DNA from: an uncultured delta proteobacterium
GTDB lineage: Bacteria > Myxococcota_A > UBA9160 > SZUA-336
Direction of reading: 5' to 3'
DNA length: 64,000 nt
Assembly: GCA_963704165.1 (NCBI GenBank)
Contig: CAVPHD010000004.1
Coordinates: 416,001 to 480,000, forward strand
This document shows positions 7,819-22,958 of the stretch, piece after piece. A model generated the notes under the pieces. The model saw nothing but the letters and a program-made list of their open reading frames with translations. It was not told the origin of the DNA and made no database searches. How positions within the stretch are numbered: the first letter of the stretch is position 1; each line of letters opens with the position of its first letter. Position numbers and translations under genes: made by a program.

Positions 7819-8856
7819 CTACTCGCTCCTCCGCCGGCGCCAGGGCGGTCGGTACGAGATGCCGAGGCCGAGGATCCGCTGGATCAGGGCGGGGTACTCG
7901 ATCCCGCGGTGGTGGGCGGACTCGGCGATGTCCTCTTCGATCGCGAGATCCGGGTTCGGGTTGACCTCGATCACGTGCACCTGCCCGGCCTCGGTGAGTC
8001 GCAGATCGAGGCGAGCGTAGCCCGAGAGCTCGAGCGCCCGGAAGCTGCGGCGGGCCACTCGCTGGATCTGTTCGGTGAGTGAGTCGTCGATCTTCGCGGG
8101 GCCGGTCGCGATGCCCAGGCGCTTCTGATACTGCGCGCTCCACTTCGCGCGTTCGGTCGCGATGGGCAGCGTTCCGCTGGGAAGCTTGTCGAAGCGCATC
8201 TCCCAGGGTGGGAAGGTCTCGAGGCGCTGGTTTCCGATCACCCCGACGGTCAGCTCGCGTCCCTCGACGTACTCCTCGGCGATCGCGTGGGTTCCGACGT
8301 TGCGGTGCACGAACGCCACGCGCTCCCGCAGCGCCGCCGCGTCCCGCACCACCGATGCCTGCGAGATCCCGAACGACGCGTCCTCGTCCATGCTCTTCAC
8401 GATGATCGGGTAGCGCAGGCCGGCGGGCGAGTGGGCGCGGCGGCCGAGCCTGAACACGTGGAAGGCCGGAGTCGGGATGCGGTGGTAGCGAAGGATTTTC
8501 TTGGCGAGCGCTTTGTTGCGCCCGAGCGTCAGGCCCTGCGGGTTGCAGCCGGTGTAGCGCGCCCCCAGGAGCTCCAGATGGGAGACCACGTTGACCATGA
8601 AGGTCCCGATGTCCTGGAACTCGCGCAGCAGGTTGAAGATGACGTGGGGACGGAACTCGGAGACGCACTTCCGGATCGCCAGCAGGTCGTGCGACACGCC
8701 GAGCACCTCGAGCTCGTGACCGAGCTCGCGGATCGCCTGGGCGACGTCGTACTCCGTGCGGAAGGGGAGAATCTCGTCGCCCGTGTCGCGACCGGCGATG
8801 TCGTCCGGCGGGACCAGGTCTTCGTGGCAGAGCAGCACGACGCGCCGCCGCTTCAT
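7819..8856 (-). CDS. D-Ala-D-Ala ligase-like ATP-grasp protein (not canonical Ddl)
   Basis: YTG, NKALAK, PIIVK...EDASFGI, EEYVEGRE, ARLDLR, EVNPNP; lacks the N-terminal GGxSxE of true Ddl. Confidence 0.85.
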   Translation of the reverse strand: MKRRRVVLLCHEDLVPPDDIAGRDTGDEILPFRTEYDVAQAIRELGHELEVLGVSHDLLAIRKCVSEFRPHVIFNLLREFQDIGTFMVNVVSHLELLGARYTGCNPQGLTLGRNKALAKKILRYHRIPTPAFHVFRLGRRAHSPAGLRYPIIVKSMDEDASFGISQASVVRDAAALRERVAFVHRNVGTHAIAEEYVEGRELTVGVIGNQRLETFPPWEMRFDKLPSGTLPIATERAKWSAQYQKRLGIATGPAKIDDSLTEQIQRVARRSFRALELSGYARLDLRLTEAGQVHVIEVNPNPDLAIEEDIAESAHHRGIEYPALIQRILGLGISYRPPWRRRRSE

Positions 8857-9887
8857 CGGAAGTACTCCCAGTGGCGCCTTCTCACGTGGCGCATGGTGTG
8901 CACGGTCAGCATTACGATCGCGTCTCGGAGCACCTCGCGCTGCGGTCGTGCGAGGCGCAGTTTGAGCGCCTGGGCCCGCATGATCATCCCCTTCAGGACC
9001 TCGTCGACGACGAAGGCGTACTGTCCGGTCCAGTTCGCGACCCGCCCGCGCAGCTCACTCCGATGCGAGCGCAGGAACGCGGCGGCGCGTTGATGGCGCC
9101 CGTTCCCGGCGGCGTCGGAGAAGAGACGCAGCAGGTCGCGGTCGTAGATCGTCAGGTCCTCCTCGCTCCAGATCGACTTCTTCCGCGCGTAGTATTCGCG
9201 CAGCGTGAAGCGGATCGTCGGCAGCGAGTCCATTCGCTCCTGCGTGCGGACCAGCGGCTTCGCGTCGCGGAGCTCGCGCATCAGGGCCTCGACGAAGCGC
9301 AGCTTGCGGAGCGCCACCGGCCAGCTGGCGTAGCGATGGCGCCAGCGACCGCCGGGCCGCAGCCAGACGGCGAAGGTCTCCGCGAAGTCCTCCACCGGGT
9401 GGCTCTGCGCGTAGAAGTTGTCGACGTTGATCACGAACTTGCGGCTGTTCGGATTCGGCACGTAGCTTCGGCGGTAGGGCGCGCTCGTAGGACCGAAGTG
9501 CTCCCGCCACGCCTTGCGCCGCCGCAGCCGGTAGGCGTTGTCGAGCGCGTGCGCCGTCTCGTGGCGCAGCAGCTTGATGCACCACTCCTGGGTGCCGCCC
9601 TCGACCTCGAACATCTGCTTGCGCTCGAGGCGGGCGAGTCGAGGGTGCGCCAGGAAGAAGGGGATGCCGAACCCGGTGACACCGTCGGGCGTGAACCAGT
9701 CGGTCGAGAGCCACTGGTAGGGCCGGAAGCGCAGGCCCGCCTGCTCGAGCTCGCCGTGCAGCCGCGCCACGTTCTCGCCCAGCGCACCATCCTCCACGCC
9801 CACGCCGAGGTCGCAGAGCCGGACATCGAGGAGCGCATCGTCCGAAAGCTTGGCCCAGCGCGCACGGGCTCGAGGCGGAGTCGGCAT
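8853..9887 (-). CDS. Putative zinc-binding metallopeptidase
   Basis: HETAH (HExxH) plus YAQSHPVEDFAETFA; 4-nt overlap with the ATP-grasp gene. Confidence 0.85.
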   Translation of the reverse strand: MPTPPRARARWAKLSDDALLDVRLCDLGVGVEDGALGENVARLHGELEQAGLRFRPYQWLSTDWFTPDGVTGFGIPFFLAHPRLARLERKQMFEVEGGTQEWCIKLLRHETAHALDNAYRLRRRKAWREHFGPTSAPYRRSYVPNPNSRKFVINVDNFYAQSHPVEDFAETFAVWLRPGGRWRHRYASWPVALRKLRFVEALMRELRDAKPLVRTQERMDSLPTIRFTLREYYARKKSIWSEEDLTIYDRDLLRLFSDAAGNGRHQRAAAFLRSHRSELRGRVANWTGQYAFVVDEVLKGMIMRAQALKLRLARPQREVLRDAIVMLTVHTMRHVRRRHWEYFR

Positions 9888-11259: not shown

Positions 11260-11404
11260 GCTTCGATCGGCGCTCCGCAACGATGCCGGAGGCCGTTTCA
11301 GTCGAACCCAGCGACGTGTCCGGTCTCGGTCGGGCTTCGCGCGCGGGTTGTCTCACTCGCGACGCGTTGCTGCTGGCGAACGAGACACGCCCGCGCATTC
11401 CCAG

Positions 11405-11477
11405 AGCCGACGGCCGGACTCGAACCGGCGACCTGCTGATTACGAATCAGCTGCTCTACCAACTGAGCTACGTCGGC
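11405..11477 (-). tRNA. tRNA-Thr(CGT), CCA not encoded
   Basis: GCCGACG/CGTCGGC acceptor stem, anticodon arm GCTGA-TTCGTAA-TCAGC, GGTTCGAGTCC T-arm. Confidence 0.97.
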
Positions 11478-15221: not shown

Positions 15222-15881
15222 ATGAGCAAGTACACACCGATCGACGACGCCCTGCACGCCTACGTACTGGAGCACCGCACGCCCGACGACCCGCTGCTCC
15301 GGGAGCTGCAGGAGGAGACGCAGCGGTTGATGGGTCCACGCAGCGTCATGCAGATCGCCGCCGACGAGGGAACGCTTCTCGGCCTGCTCGTCGCGGCGAT
15401 CGGCGCGCGCCGGGTGGTCGAGGTCGGCACCTTCACGGGCTACTCCGCACTGTGCATGGCCCGTGCGCTCCCGCCCGGCGGGAAGCTCCTGGCCTGCGAC
15501 GTGTCCGAGGAATACACCGCGGTGGCTCGGCGGTTCTGGGAGAAGGCCGGCATCGCGGACCGGATCGATCTCGCGCTCGGACCCGCGGACGCGACGCTCC
15601 GCGCGCTGCCCGACGAGATCCAGTTCGACTTCGGCTTCATCGACGCGGACAAGGCGAACTACCACACGTACTACGAAGAGATCCTGCGGCGCCTTCGCCC
15701 GGGTGGGCTGATCGCGATCGACAACGTGCTCTGGAACGGGCAGGTCCTGCGCGAGGCGGACCAGAGCGCCGACACGGTCGCGATCCGCGCGATCAACGAC
15801 CACGTCGCGGCCGACCGGCGCGTTCAAGCGGTGATGATCGGCGTCGCCGACGGGGTCACGCTCGCGCGCAAGCTCGGCTAG
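15222..15881 (+). CDS. O-methyltransferase (caffeoyl-CoA OMT family)
   Basis: EVGTFTGYS, FIDADK, DNVLWNG. Confidence 0.93.
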   Translation: MSKYTPIDDALHAYVLEHRTPDDPLLRELQEETQRLMGPRSVMQIAADEGTLLGLLVAAIGARRVVEVGTFTGYSALCMARALPPGGKLLACDVSEEYTAVARRFWEKAGIADRIDLALGPADATLRALPDEIQFDFGFIDADKANYHTYYEEILRRLRPGGLIAIDNVLWNGQVLREADQSADTVAIRAINDHVAADRRVQAVMIGVADGVTLARKLG

Positions 15882-15887
15882 CGGCCG

Positions 15888-16721
15888 ATGGACGCGCGAC
15901 TCCCGCTCGCGGTGATCGGTGCGGGCTGGGCCGGTCAGGCGCGGGTGCGCGCGCTCGCCGAGAGCCCGACCGCGCGGCTCGCGGGTCTGGTCACGCGCCG
16001 CGAAGCGGGGGAGCTCTCGTTCGCGGACGTGCTCGCGGACGCGACCGTCGCCGGGGTGATCCTGTGCACGCCGAATCTCCTGCACGCCGGGCAGGCGCGC
16101 GAAGCGCTCGAAGCCGGCAAGCACGTGCTGGTCGAGTTCCCGCTCGCGCCCGGACCCGAGTCGGGTCGCGCACTCTTCGCGGACGCGCACGCGCGGCGTC
16201 GGGTTCTGCACGAGGAGCACATCGAGCTGCTCTCGCCCGCGCAGTCCTGGCTGCGCGAGCGCGCCGCCGCGGTCGGCCGGCCGCGCAGCGGCAGCGTCCA
16301 CTTCACGGGCAACCTCACGGGCTGGCTCGCCGATCCGAAGCTCTCCGGGAGCTCGGCGCTCTGCGCGCTCTCGCGGCTGCATCGGCTGGTCGACCTGTTC
16401 GGCGCGGCGGAGGTGCGCGGGGCGACGCTCGAACGCGGAACGGGCTATCGGCTCGGGGTCGAGCTCGGCTTCGAGGCCGGCGGCCGCGCGGATCTGGTCG
16501 AGGAGCGCGCGCCGGGTCTGAAACGCGGCACGCGCTGGAGCGTGGAGTGCGAGAACGGATCGATCGGCGATCCGCCGGAGCAACGCCCCCGCGGCTTGTT
16601 CGCGCGCGATCTCGAGTGCTTCGTCGCGCGCGTCACCGAGGGCGCGGAGTCGTACGTGAGCGAGGCCCGTTGCCTGCACGTGCTCTCGCTCGTCGAGGCG
16701 ATCGAACGGCGCCTCTGTTAG
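15888..16721 (+). CDS. Gfo/Idh/MocA oxidoreductase, biliverdin reductase A-like
   Basis: GAGWAG, GKHVLVEFP, HEEHIELL, SRLHRLVDLFG, EERAPGLKR. Confidence 0.8.
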   Translation: MDARLPLAVIGAGWAGQARVRALAESPTARLAGLVTRREAGELSFADVLADATVAGVILCTPNLLHAGQAREALEAGKHVLVEFPLAPGPESGRALFADAHARRRVLHEEHIELLSPAQSWLRERAAAVGRPRSGSVHFTGNLTGWLADPKLSGSSALCALSRLHRLVDLFGAAEVRGATLERGTGYRLGVELGFEAGGRADLVEERAPGLKRGTRWSVECENGSIGDPPEQRPRGLFARDLECFVARVTEGAESYVSEARCLHVLSLVEAIERRLC

Positions 16722-16731
16722 GCTACGCGCC

Positions 16732-17725
16732 GTGAGAGCTTCCGCGTTCGGCACAGCACTCGCGCTCGCGCTGCTTCGCGCTCGTGCCGGGCTGCAACGA
16801 CTCGGGCTCTCCGACGGGCGCCGCGGGATTTCGCGTCGCGCTCCTGACTCCCGGCTCGATTCGCGACGGTGGCTGGAACCAGAGCGCGTACGAGGGGCTC
16901 GAGCGGATCCGTGACGAGCTCGGCGCCGAGATCGCGCACCAGGAGGCGAAGACCCCGCAGGACTTCGAGTCCGGCTTCCGCGATTTCGCCGCGCGCGGGT
17001 TCAGCCTGGTCTTCGGTCACGGCTTCGAGTTCCAGGACGCCGCTTCGCGGGTCTCGAAGGAGTACCCGAACACGATCTTCGTCACGACGAGCGGCTCGAC
17101 GATCCGCTCGAACGTCGCGCCGATCGTCTTCGAGCTCGAAGAGGCGACCTACCTGCTCGGCTTCCTCGGCGCGCGCATGTCGGTGCGCTCCAAGGTGGGC
17201 GCGATCGGGGGCGTGAAGATTCCGTCGGTCGAGAGCACGTTCACCGCGTATCAGGCCGGCGCGATCCGCGCGCGCGGACACGCGGAGACGACGGTCTCGT
17301 ACATCGGCAGCTGGACCGACGTCTCGGCCGCGCGCGAGGCGACGCTCGCGCAGATCGCGGGCGGCGTCGACGTCGTGATCCACAACGCGAACGAAGCCGC
17401 GGCGGGGTTCTTCCAGGCCGTCACCGAGAGCCCGGGCGTGTGGGCGTTCGGCACGAACAAGAACCAGAACGACCGCGCGCCCGAACGCGTGCTCGCCTCG
17501 GCGACGCTCGACGTCCCGCGCGCGCTGGTTCTGGTCGCGCAGGAAGTGAAGTCCGGTTCGTTCAACGCGCGCGCGATGCGCTTCGGTCTGCGCAGCGGGG
17601 TCGTGAAGATCGAGTGGAACGAGGCCCTGCGCGAGAAGATCCCGGCGGAGCTGCGGCAGGAAGTCGAGAAGCTACAGGCCGATGTCGTCTCGGGATCGAT
17701 CTCCGTGCCGCGCGGGAGCTTCTGA
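16732..17725 (+). CDS. BMP-family ABC substrate-binding lipoprotein (+1 frameshift near 16775)
   Basis: Signal peptide from GTG 16732 lies in one frame; lipobox VPG-C and DGGWNQSAYEG, FGHGFEF lie in the next frame. Confidence 0.85.
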
Positions 17726-17729
17726 GCGC

Positions 17730-19178
17730 TTGCCGCGCGTCGCGCTGCGCGACATTCGCAAGCGCTTCGGCGCCACCGAGGCGCTGCGCGGCGCGAGCCT
17801 CGCGCTCGAGCCCGGCTCCGTCCACGCGCTGCTCGGCGAGAACGGCGCGGGCAAGACCACGCTCGTTCGCACGCTGTACGGAAGTGTTCGTCCCGACTCG
17901 GGCGTGATCGAGATCGACGGGCGTGCGGTCGAGATCGAGAGCCCGCGCGCGGCGCTCGCGCTCGGCATCGGCCTCGTGCACCAGCACTTCATGCTCGTGC
18001 CCGCGCTCTCGGTCGCCGAGAACCTTCTGCTCGGCGAGCCGGGTTCGATCTGGCTGCCGCGCGCGAAGCGCAACGCCGAGGCCGCCGCGCTGCTCGAGCG
18101 CTTCGGCCTCGCGCTCGACCCCGAGGCCCGGACCGAGACGCTCGCGGTCGCGCAGATGCAGCGTCTCGAAATCGCACGGGCGCTCGCGCGCGGCGCGAAC
18201 GTTCTCGTTCTCGACGAGCCCACCGCCGTGCTCGCGCCGTCCGAGGTCGACGAGCTTCTCGCGCTTCTCGCCCGCCTTCGCGACCAGGGCAAGAGCATCG
18301 TCCTGATCTCGCACAAGCTCGAGGAGATCACGGCGGTCTGCGACCGGGTGACGGTGCTGCGCGCGGGGGAGACGGTTTCGAGCCAGCCGCTCGCGGGGCT
18401 CGACGCGAGCGAGCTCGGCCGCTTGATGGTCGGCGACGCGCCGCCGCCTCCGGGACGTCCACCGGAAACCGAGCCGGGTCCGCTCGCGCTGTCGCTCTCC
18501 GGTGTACGTGTACCCGGGCTCGCCGGGATCGATCTCGAGCTGCGCGCGGGTGAGCTCGTCGCGCTCGCCGGAATCGACGGCAACGGCCAGGGTCCGCTCG
18601 AGGAGCTGTTCGCGGGCGTGCGCGCGCTCGATGCGGGCACGCTTCGCGTCCTGCGCCCGCCGCTCGCTCTGCTCTCCGGCGATCGCCAGCGCACGGGGCT
18701 CGTGCTCGACCTCTCCGTGGCGGAGAACCTGGTGCTGCCCGAGGCCGCACGCGGTGGTGACACGCAGGTGTTTCGGGCGGGGATCGCGCGCCCGTCCGAG
18801 CTGCGCTTCGAGACGCGCGCGGCGATCGAGCGCTTCGGGATCCGGGCCGGACCCGACGATCCCGCGCGCTCTCTCTCGGGTGGCAACCAGCAGAAGCTCT
18901 GCGTGGCGCGCGCCCTGCGCGCGCGTCCGGGGGTGCTCGTGGCGGTGAACCCGACGCGCGGGCTCGATCTCGAAGCGACGGCCGCGGTGCGCGAAGAGCT
19001 TCGCCGCGAGGTGCGCGAAGGCACGGCCGTGCTGCTGATCTCGACCGAGCTCGACGAGGTTCTCGAGCTCGGCCAGCGGATCGCGGTTCTGTTTCGCGGC
19101 CGGCTCCTGCCCGTTGCATCCGATGCGCGAACTCGGGTGGCGATCGGCCGGCTGATGCTCGGTGAGGCCGCGACGTGA
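17730..19178 (+). CDS. ABC transporter ATP-binding protein (sugar/nucleoside type, two ABC domains)
   Basis: GENGAGKTT, LDEPT, LSGGNQQK; probable TTG start at 17730. Confidence 0.92.
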   Translation: MPRVALRDIRKRFGATEALRGASLALEPGSVHALLGENGAGKTTLVRTLYGSVRPDSGVIEIDGRAVEIESPRAALALGIGLVHQHFMLVPALSVAENLLLGEPGSIWLPRAKRNAEAAALLERFGLALDPEARTETLAVAQMQRLEIARALARGANVLVLDEPTAVLAPSEVDELLALLARLRDQGKSIVLISHKLEEITAVCDRVTVLRAGETVSSQPLAGLDASELGRLMVGDAPPPPGRPPETEPGPLALSLSGVRVPGLAGIDLELRAGELVALAGIDGNGQGPLEELFAGVRALDAGTLRVLRPPLALLSGDRQRTGLVLDLSVAENLVLPEAARGGDTQVFRAGIARPSELRFETRAAIERFGIRAGPDDPARSLSGGNQQKLCVARALRARPGVLVAVNPTRGLDLEATAAVREELRREVREGTAVLLISTELDEVLELGQRIAVLFRGRLLPVASDARTRVAIGRLMLGEAAT

Positions 19179-21074: not shown

Positions 21075-22958
21075 CTAGGTGTAGTCGGCGAGTGCCGTTC
21101 GAAGTCGGAAGAGACTGTCGCGGAGCCCGCCCTCGCGGCTGCGCTCTCGCCAGCACGCGGCCTGCTCGACGACGAGCGGCTCGAGATCGGCGCGAAGCTC
21201 GGATGCCGGGGGTCCGCCCGAGCTCGTCGCGTGCATCAATCGCAGCGCGCCGTGTCGCGCGAGCGCGGCGGCCTGCCGGAGCTCACGCGCGCAGATCTCG
21301 CCGCCGAAGCCCGCCGGTCGGGCGCGCACCAGTGACTCGCCGAGAGCGCGAAGCTCGTCGGCGATCGCTTCGAGACGCGGGCCACTGGTCTCGCCCCAGG
21401 TCAGCGCGGGCGCGCGGCCGAGCGGCGTGAAGAGCGCCGTCGCCAGCGGACTCGAGTTCAGCACGTCGAGGCCCGTCTCGGCGCCAATCTCGCCGAGCCG
21501 GACGAGAGCTGCGCCGATCACGCGCTCGCGATCGCGGAGCACGAGCACGTCGAGCGCGCGCTCGAGGTCGAGATCGCTCTGGCTCGCGAGACACCAGCTC
21601 GAGGCCGCGCCGTACGCGAGCGCGGGCAGGCTGACGACCGGCGGCTGCAGGTGGCCGCGGTCGCCCCAGTCGGTGATCAAGACGCCGTCGGCACCGCCGC
21701 CGACTCCCATCTCGACCGCGTCGCGCAGGTTCGCGAGCGCGTTCGGCAGTCGGCCGAGCAGCGAGAGCCAGCTCGACGTGCCGGGACAGACGCGAAACGG
21801 GACGCGCGCGCGCGCGTAGGGTCCGGCGAGCGTCGCGAATCCGCGCACGCCCTCGAGGTCGATCCCCACGCCGCTCAAGACCTCGCGCACCGAAGCGCCG
21901 AGCGTCGCGGGGTCGCGCGGTGCCTCGTAGCCCCAGGCCAGCGCGACGGTCCGTTCGCGCGGGAGATCGCCGATCAGCTCCGGATGCTGCACGACGATGT
22001 CGCCCCAGAACTGCACGTCGCGGTCGTCGGCGTGCAGTCCGCGCATCAGCTCGAGCAGGTAGTCGAGGTAGACGCGTCCCTTGCCGCGCGCCTCGCACGC
22101 ACCGCGGCTCCTTCCGCGTCCGAGCTCGAACGTCTCGTCGCAGCCGATGTTCACGCTCCGGCTCGTGAAGTTCGGCAGCAGCTCCGCGTAGAGCGAGCGC
22201 ATGAACGCGACGCTCTCCGCGGCGGGCGCGAGACACGCGGCGGTCGGAGAGTGGCCATCGAGCTCGGCGAGCGGGCGATACTCCGGGTGTCGGAGCCAGC
22301 GCTCCATGTGGCCGAAGCTGTTCTGATTGGGCACGAGCTCGATGCCGCGTTCGGCGCAGGCGGCGTCGAGACAGCGGATCTCGAGCGGCGTGAGCGGAGA
22401 AGCGTCGCGCCAGACGCGCTCGTGGGCCGCGTACGCAAAGGTGTGTTCGGTGTAGAGCTGAAGCTCGTTCAGCCGCAGCTCCTCGAGCAGATCGAGAAGC
22501 TCGAAGAGCGTTCCCATCGTCGGTACGCGGTCGCGGCTGACGTCGAGCATGTAGCCGCGCACGCGAAGGTCGGGCCAGTCGCGGATGCGCAGGAGCGGGA
22601 GCTCCCTCCCCGATTGAAGAACGATCTGCGACAGCAGGCCCGCGCCCCAGTTGAGCCCGCGCCGATCGCGCGCGCGAAGCGCGATACCGTTCGCCGCGAT
22701 CTCGAGCGAGAAGCCCTCGTCGGGCAACGCGGACGCGGGGTCGATCGCGAGCTCGATCGCGGGTGCATCACCGGCCGGCGCAATCGCCGGCAGTCGGGCA
22801 TCGCGGCCGAGGCACGCGAGCAGGCGCGCGCGCGCGCGCTCGGCATCGAGCGGCCGTTCCGCACGGACGTGCACTGCGGGAATCGCGTCGAGCCGCAGGA
22901 CCCCCGACTCGATCCGCAGCTCACGCGGCCGTGGCAAGAACTCGAGCCGACTCGCCAT
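21075..22958 (-). CDS. Glycoside hydrolase family 20 (beta-N-acetylhexosaminidase)
   Basis: RGYMLDVSRDRVP, NSFGH, IGCDE catalytic pair, WGD. Confidence 0.9.
   Translation of the reverse strand: MASRLEFLPRPRELRIESGVLRLDAIPAVHVRAERPLDAERARARLLACLGRDARLPAIAPAGDAPAIELAIDPASALPDEGFSLEIAANGIALRARDRRGLNWGAGLLSQIVLQSGRELPLLRIRDWPDLRVRGYMLDVSRDRVPTMGTLFELLDLLEELRLNELQLYTEHTFAYAAHERVWRDASPLTPLEIRCLDAACAERGIELVPNQNSFGHMERWLRHPEYRPLAELDGHSPTAACLAPAAESVAFMRSLYAELLPNFTSRSVNIGCDETFELGRGRSRGACEARGKGRVYLDYLLELMRGLHADDRDVQFWGDIVVQHPELIGDLPRERTVALAWGYEAPRDPATLGASVREVLSGVGIDLEGVRGFATLAGPYARARVPFRVCPGTSSWLSLLGRLPNALANLRDAVEMGVGGGADGVLITDWGDRGHLQPPVVSLPALAYGAASSWCLASQSDLDLERALDVLVLRDRERVIGAALVRLGEIGAETGLDVLNSSPLATALFTPLGRAPALTWGETSGPRLEAIADELRALGESLVRARPAGFGGEICARELRQAAALARHGALRLMHATSSGGPPASELRADLEPLVVEQAACWRERSREGGLRDSLFRLRTALADYT

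Follow-up and report, generated by a model that had tools for sequence, protein, structure and literature searches.

The window analysed here (the whole stretch of DNA, 64,000 nucleotides) encodes, at positions 15888-16721, a 277-residue protein that is a genuine member of the biliverdin reductase A (BVR-A) family. It is predicted to convert biliverdin-type bilins into bilirubin-type rubins with NADPH as reductant, and it belongs to a broad non-cyanobacterial bacterial clade likely to be ancestral to the animal enzyme, a reading that we put at a probability of about 0.65. Moderate to strong support places animal BVR-A within this bacterial clade and not among the cyanobacteria; the bacterial family to which the window belongs is a cousin of the animal enzyme and probably not its donor. 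The gene travels with no known supply or use of biliverdin.

Biliverdin reductases (BVRs) have been described as broadly distributed in animals and bacteria (PMC12847894), BvdR has been treated as a mammalian and cyanobacterial enzyme beside a distinct F420 family in Actinobacteria (PMC10608806), and a cyanobacteria-to-metazoan origin of BVR-A has been stated (PNAS 2025). The Actinobacterial F420-dependent BVRs and BVR-B also reduce biliverdin in non-photosynthetic organisms and are described as structurally and mechanistically distinct families (PMC10608806, PMC7509768); Pfam, PDB and NCBIfam searches found no sequence relation of the 277-residue protein to either. A literature search with subscription journals outside its coverage found no paper on a non-cyanobacterial bacterial BVR-A clade. 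Among the matches listed, automated naming at JGI has already made 17 of 120 relatives a 'biliverdin reductase', and NCBI and some JGI names for relatives read 'Gfo/Idh/MocA family oxidoreductase' or 'predicted dehydrogenase'.

Table 1 Coordinates of the BVR-A gene, its active-site motifs and other features in the window.
Feature	Position	Strand	Basis or remark
BVR-A family oxidoreductase, 277 aa	15888..16721	+	PF01408 Rossmann domain N-terminal, PF09166 domain C-terminal
Dinucleotide-binding glycine motif, residues 11-16	15918..15935	+	G13 = human G17 (2h63 alignment)
R37-R38, cofactor contacts	15996..16001	+	Human R45-R46 (2h63 alignment); predicted NADPH preference
E83-F84-P85, replacing EKP	16134..16142	+	Human E97-Y98 (2h63 alignment)
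S162-R163-x-x-R166	16371..16385	+	R163 = human R172 / Synechocystis R185 (alignment); R166 at the spacing of Synechocystis R188
Basic patch R207, R213	16506..16532	+	Human K219, R225; T215 where human has R227
C-terminal Cys	16716-16718	+	Aligned with human C-terminal cysteine pair including C292
O-methyltransferase (PF01596), upstream	15222..15881	+	Pfam; upstream in 16/20 family loci
Bmp/PnrA-type substrate-binding protein, downstream	16784-17725	+	Bmp within 1.5 kb in 18/20 family loci
ABC ATPase, downstream	17682-19178	+	Pfam
Gene pair, presumably ATP-grasp ligase and zinc-binding metallopeptidase by resemblance	7819-9887	-	
tRNA-Thr(CGT)	11404-11477	-	
GH20 family glycosidase	21075-22958	-	

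The open reading frame runs from an ATG start to a TAG stop, and its product scores above the Pfam cut-offs for both PF01408 (53.6 bits, cut-off 24) and PF09166, the catalytic domain of biliverdin reductase (33.3 bits, cut-off 24.5). The top PDB sequence matches, spanning residues 6-277, come from rat and human BVR-A (E 7e-30 to 4e-29), which bears out the full-length likeness to the animal protein claimed in the preliminary description. Synechocystis BVR comes next at E 6e-16 over residues 8-175 only, and generic Gfo proteins stand below the BVRs, from E 2e-13; NCBIfam returns only weak sugar-dehydrogenase matches. The six motifs that had been listed (GKHVLVEFP, VLHEEHIELL, SRLHRLVDLFG, ATLE, EERAPGLKR and a C-terminal one) are all found in the claimed order, and the human counterparts given for them match the chain of PDB 2h63 by alignment. 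The predicted AlphaFold model (pLDDT 96) gives TM 0.92-0.93 and rmsd 1.8-1.9 to mammalian BVR-A in Foldseek, and in VIA its best match is rat BVR-A (Z 35.1, rmsd 1.7, 272 aligned), ahead of Synechocystis BVR (Z 32.0, rmsd 2.2) and the best non-BVR structure (Z 30.7). An ESM Atlas search was non-discriminating because the animal BVR-A cluster ranked only 22nd amid many Gfo/Idh/MocA clusters; the third-ranked cluster of that search is a 107-member Gfo/Idh/MocA cluster, 67% viral among members with a record, with a feature score of 0.97.

Vertebrate BLVRA (rat 1gcu/1lc0/1lc3, human 2h63; EC 1.3.1.24) shares with the protein the PF01408 and PF09166 domains, the two-domain fold with a compact C-terminal domain, and 30-37% identity (8 vertebrate enzymes), but has two short insertions that are animal-specific and absent here, as well as W where the bacterial protein has R166; it also differs in host, here bacterial, and in its heme oxygenase partner, not found in this genome. 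BvdR of Synechocystis PCC 6803 (PDB 5b3t/5b3u/5b3v) shares the family, the catalytic arginine and the S-R-x-x-R motif. Unlike the protein described here, BvdR comes from hosts that make bilins and fails the PF09166 cut-off in the one example scanned, and identity to 10 cyanobacterial enzymes is 26-32%. Gfo/Idh/MocA oxidoreductases (GenD2 6nor, KanD2 6jw6, KijD10 and inositol dehydrogenases) have the same superfamily fold, with Z up to 30.7, but are only 21-26% identical.

The gene appears to be native to its Myxococcota genome. Its GC3 is 0.90 against 0.87-0.92 in neighbouring genes and hence does not point to contamination or a recent transfer; animal contamination and a recent acquisition from animals were rejected on this ground and on the synteny kept across the family and the orthologue in 22 of 24 relatives. 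No sigma-70 promoter match was found upstream of the gene.

At the cofactor site, G13, R37, R38 and E83 keep the identities of human G17, R45, R46 and E97. In the human enzyme, G17A damages NADPH binding and R45/R46 are cofactor contacts (PMC12519219); R38 varies within the window's own family (3/8 rows). The essential arginine is also kept, with R163 corresponding to human R172, rat R171 and Synechocystis R185, which Takao et al. (PMC5309722) show to be the one essential catalytic residue of all three enzymes. All 29 close relatives compared have R163 as well. In the first of two alignments used for phylogeny (set 1), the arginine is present in 8/8 rows of the own family, 26/26 of other bacteria, 10/10 of cyanobacteria and 7/8 of vertebrates, against 0/10 in the outgroup, and in set 2, made of largely different rows, the figures are 7/7, 26/26, 10/10, 10/11 and 0/11. 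R207 and R213 correspond to human K219 (here Arg) and R225.

At the secondary bilin site, R207 and R166 are kept, and human Y98 and R227 are replaced by F84 and T215. The tyrosine beside E97 is not essential (Takao et al., PMC5309722): human Y98F has a kcat/Km of 4.4 compared with 4.6, although rat Y97F drops from 15.1 to 1.2 (PMC5309722 Table 2). Mutation of R227 lowers the activity of the human enzyme (PMC12519219), and Synechocystis R246A keeps a kcat/Km of 2.2 of 3.9 (PMC5309722 Table 2); the Synechocystis residues Y102, R188, K237 and R246 were mapped through other cyanobacterial orthologues and not through the Synechocystis sequence itself. The protein ends in a cysteine that is kept in its closest relatives and not family-wide; human C292, in the pair to which it aligns, has been noted as conserved (PMC12519219).

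The usual Gfo/Idh/MocA motif EKP had been described as replaced as in BVRs, and the motif indeed reads EFP. All ten generic outgroup rows of set 1 carry the EKP lysine and a His at position 162, where this protein has Ser. Loss of EKP is not diagnostic on its own: in set 2, EY stands at this site in 7 of 11 outgroup rows, which are without the catalytic arginine. The nearest outgroups of all BVRs are Gfo/Idh/MocA groups of bacteria that have EYP and R19 and no catalytic arginine (L144, L145, L147, L152, L153, L156, L159 and L161).

Assayed biliverdin reduction is on record for cyanobacterial BvdR and vertebrate BVR-A (PMC5309722 Table 2). Since the essential arginine is kept and the protein lies between these two assayed lineages, it is likely able to catalyse biliverdin reduction. 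By homology, NADPH would bind the Rossmann domain through G13, R37/R38 and E83, stacked bilins would be held in the cleft through their propionates by R163, R166 and R207, and a hydride would pass to C10 with a proton from R163.

Whether a bilin is the substrate in vivo is, in our estimate, an even bet. An unlikely but substantial alternative is that the protein is a BVR-A homologue acting on a non-bilin carboxylated substrate, perhaps one connected with the neighbouring O-methyltransferase or Bmp ABC importer, with any biliverdin reduction as a side activity. The BVR-A gene starts 6 nt after the stop of the O-methyltransferase gene, as first described, and the two are probably co-transcribed. 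Both neighbours recur in most family loci (Table 1), no heme oxygenase or bilin-using protein is associated with the gene in the family genomes or the Myxococcota sample, and most coral and other invertebrate-type homologues are without the catalytic arginine (2/8 keep it), which suggests that the BVR-A family can change function. However, the O-methyltransferase and the Bmp gene are each found in 0 of 31 loci of other non-cyanobacterial lineages, and genes for HAD-hydrolase or enoyl-CoA hydratase intervene between the BVR gene and Bmp in several family members. Among the loci compared, there is no conserved neighbourhood outside the family and no conserved heme or bilin neighbourhood. The arginine required for biliverdin reduction is, moreover, invariant in all bacterial rows examined, and both cyanobacterial and vertebrate members reduce biliverdin.

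Of the 24 other family genomes, 22 carry a single-copy full-length orthologue, as does none of the 16 genomes that represent other families of the class; in one of these 22 the gene is split across two frames (G005:C1:1363575-1364397), by assembly error or a real frameshift. A profile search places the BVR-A clade in 60 of 401 Myxococcota genomes, and GTDB loci add records from Planctomycetota, Ca. Eisenbacteria, UBA10199-type bacteria and Bradymonadia. Sampling covered 80 of 223 relatives in the GTDB scan and, in the representative search, 150 of 268 matches (E 1e-10 or better), so closer bacterial relatives may have been missed.

On the eukaryotic side, BVR-A members include those of vertebrates, of Acropora corals and of a unicellular holozoan, Syssomonas multiformis (P0141, EukProt). 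The Syssomonas protein has about 75 extra N-terminal residues without a Pfam match and shows bacterial-type states (R166, T215 and a short Rossmann loop); its sequence comes from a transcriptome, which could hold prey or bacterial reads. The coral and invertebrate-type rows include P0247, P0286 (Acropora), P0381, P0236, P0248, P0261 and P0222, and the Acropora homologue has Asp at the site of the catalytic arginine. Many invertebrate proteins annotated as 'biliverdin reductase A-like' may be biliverdin-inactive, given that this arginine is absent.

Trees were built from two sets of sequences. Set 1 has 71 rows, including 10 generic Gfo outgroups, and was analysed in IQ-TREE under LG+C20 PMSF. 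Set 2 has 65 largely different rows with an ingroup of only assembled genomes and named proteins, and its outgroups are nearer, 7 of 11 coming from metagenome contigs. The trees exclude fragments and frameshifted loci (16 representatives; L049 and L063) as well as residues 1-70 of the Syssomonas sequence. The alignments are short (282-286 columns; 282 in set 1), the trees have long branches, and the composition test is failed by several rows. FastTree results preceded the approximately unbiased (AU) tests, and the cyanobacterial hypothesis was taken from the published paper.

The BVR clade stands apart from generic Gfo/Idh/MocA proteins with support of 100/100 in set 1 and 98/93 in set 2 with its nearer outgroups, and the protein groups with the BVRs in both. 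Cyanobacteria form their own clade (100/99 in both sets), which branches first when the tree is rooted with the Gfo/Idh/MocA outgroup; the protein does not fall within this BvdR clade and is without its longer segments. Non-cyanobacterial bacteria and eukaryotes group together at 82/80 in set 1 and 100/97 in set 2. The eukaryotes of set 1 (99/94) are nested behind nodes of 94/93, 97/81 and 97/83, and their closest sisters (P0125, P0309 and P0150) are metagenome proteins. In set 2 the inner node has 95/94, and the placement of Planctomycetota as sister of the eukaryotes is weak (91/50).

Two shortened segments are common to eukaryotes and non-cyanobacterial bacteria, compared with cyanobacteria and the outgroup, and both deletions lie largely within columns dropped from the tree. 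The segment from R37 to F45 (spacing 7 in this protein and 19 in BvdR) is at least 19 residues in cyanobacteria and 19-22 in the outgroup, against 12-13 in vertebrates, 8 in Syssomonas and 3-14 in bacteria, apart from two bacterial rows of set 2 with 20 and 23. From R213 to D241, cyanobacteria (BvdR included) have 43 residues and the outgroup of set 1 has 47-69, against 28-30 in vertebrates, 29 in Syssomonas, 27 in this protein and its family and 26-33 in most other bacteria; a basal Myxococcota branch has 37-39 and the invertebrate-type rows range from 27 to 49. The nearer outgroups of set 2 have 37-54 here, which makes this second indel a less clear divide at the base. Synechocystis BVR has been described with an extra helix and three extra strands (Takao et al., PMC5309722).

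Together, the trees, AU tests and shared deletions challenge the published cyanobacteria-to-metazoan origin (PNAS 2025), and we consider a non-cyanobacterial origin of animal BVR-A to be likely. That animal BVR-A did come from cyanobacteria, with the bacterial genes grouped by a tree artefact or taken from eukaryotes, seems quite improbable. An AU test on the quick tree of set 1 does not reject eukaryotes with cyanobacteria (p 0.069), and the stem of the non-cyanobacterial clade reaches only 82/80 in that set. On the careful trees, however, the same grouping has p 0.036 (set 1) and 0.001 (set 2), and the cyanobacteria remain a clade of their own. The eukaryotes fall within the diversity of the bacteria (non-cyanobacterial bacteria as one clade excluding eukaryotes have p 0.027), and the deletions are evidence largely from columns that the trees did not use. 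Also against cyanobacterial descent, a mammalian enzyme is 25-40% identical to the non-cyanobacterial clade and 22-28% to cyanobacteria, and the gene is present in a unicellular holozoan too.

The protein had also been proposed as a possible close relative of the animal enzyme. This holds insofar as it stands nearer to the animal enzyme than cyanobacterial BvdR does, but the closeness is not special to its own genome or family, given that other bacteria reach 40-45% identity to vertebrates. An exclusive clade of animals and the own family is rejected with these bacteria present (p 0.0009, set 1) and not rejected in set 2, which is without them (p 0.072); we leave a direct sister relationship as unlikely.

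For the biliverdin supply, the earlier statement that the window holds no heme oxygenase or photosynthesis genes extends to the genome, which is 84% complete and gave no match to canonical heme oxygenase (PF01126), to phytochrome (PF00360) or to reaction centre (PF00124). Neither PF01126 nor PF00360 occurs in any of the 25 family genomes. Across the Myxococcota sample, PF01126 shows no association with the BVR gene (4 of 60 BVR-positive genomes compared with 4.9 expected), and none of the 13 genomes that encode a ferredoxin-dependent bilin reductase, nor any of the 6 with a reaction centre, carries the BVR gene. As a control pair, bilin reductase and heme oxygenase overlap in 7 of 13 genomes compared with 1.1 expected; in both comparisons related genomes do not count as independent. 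The own genome, the family and the phylum sample showed no link to phototrophy, phytochromes or phycobilin-type reductases. Heme-oxygenase-like proteins of PF14518 are absent from the own genome and do not track the BVR gene, because they are matched in 8 of 24 genomes within the family and 8 of 16 outside it. HemS, ChuX and lipocalin (PF00061) were not found in the own genome, which has four ABM-domain proteins. Hints of a tetrapyrrole connection at other loci are few; in one of them (L040:3663-9996), the BVR homologue lies inside a TonB receptor/BtuF/BtuC-like (BtuB/BtuCF-like) uptake cluster.

Since no canonical heme oxygenase accompanies the gene, our best guess is that the bilin in the cell would be scavenged or would arise when heme is cleaved in a non-canonical or non-enzymatic way; redox protection or detoxification would then be the role of the enzyme. 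It is very improbable that the protein performs the second step of a complete endogenous heme degradation begun by a non-canonical split-barrel heme oxygenase of the HugZ/HOZ type. The candidate is a CREG/PNPOx + DUF2470 protein in the own genome (G000:C6 ~73,600-74,370; L126:1420-2175 +) with weak HutZ (50.9 bits) and HugZ (43.6 bits) matches; DUF2470 recurs within the genus (10 of 11 further genomes), and ferrochelatase is tail-to-tail with the BVR gene in 2 of 80 GTDB loci (L054:1966-3012 and L079:5336-6724). These scores are far under the HutZ and HugZ cut-offs (225 and 240), though, the gene is unlinked to the BVR gene, DUF2470 was found in none of the 13 family genomes that belong to other genera, 11 of them BVR carriers, and HemS and ChuX, not found in the genome, also speak against such a pathway. 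Finally, it is hardly credible that the protein is a common sugar or inositol dehydrogenase of the Gfo/Idh/MocA type merely resembling a BVR: relatives bear such names and NCBIfam matches point weakly that way, but this identity is largely refuted by the PF09166 score, the absence of the EKP lysine and His 162 and the 100/100 grouping with BVRs.

We tentatively suggest, at somewhat less than even odds, that a unicellular holozoan ancestor acquired BVR-A from a clade of heterotrophic bacteria (Myxococcota, Planctomycetota, Eisenbacteria and UBA10199) that reduces bilins without a heme oxygenase of its own. The reaction would have been a stand-alone scavenging or antioxidant step that heme oxygenase joined later, and the bacteria may hide a further source of biliverdin. 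If this is true, bilirubin production began stand-alone in bacteria, given a source clade without heme oxygenase.

If the reading of the protein and its clade holds, the donor of human BLVRA would move from cyanobacteria to non-photosynthetic bacteria, at a date before animals. It would also provide hundreds of compact (~277 aa) candidate enzymes for bilirubin production and for work on mechanism, with natural variation at the positions of Y98 and R227. The question raised is why whole families keep a single-copy bilin reductase without a canonical heme oxygenase; possible answers are scavenged bilins, a further heme-cleaving enzyme, or a second substrate that is perhaps relevant to the animal enzyme.
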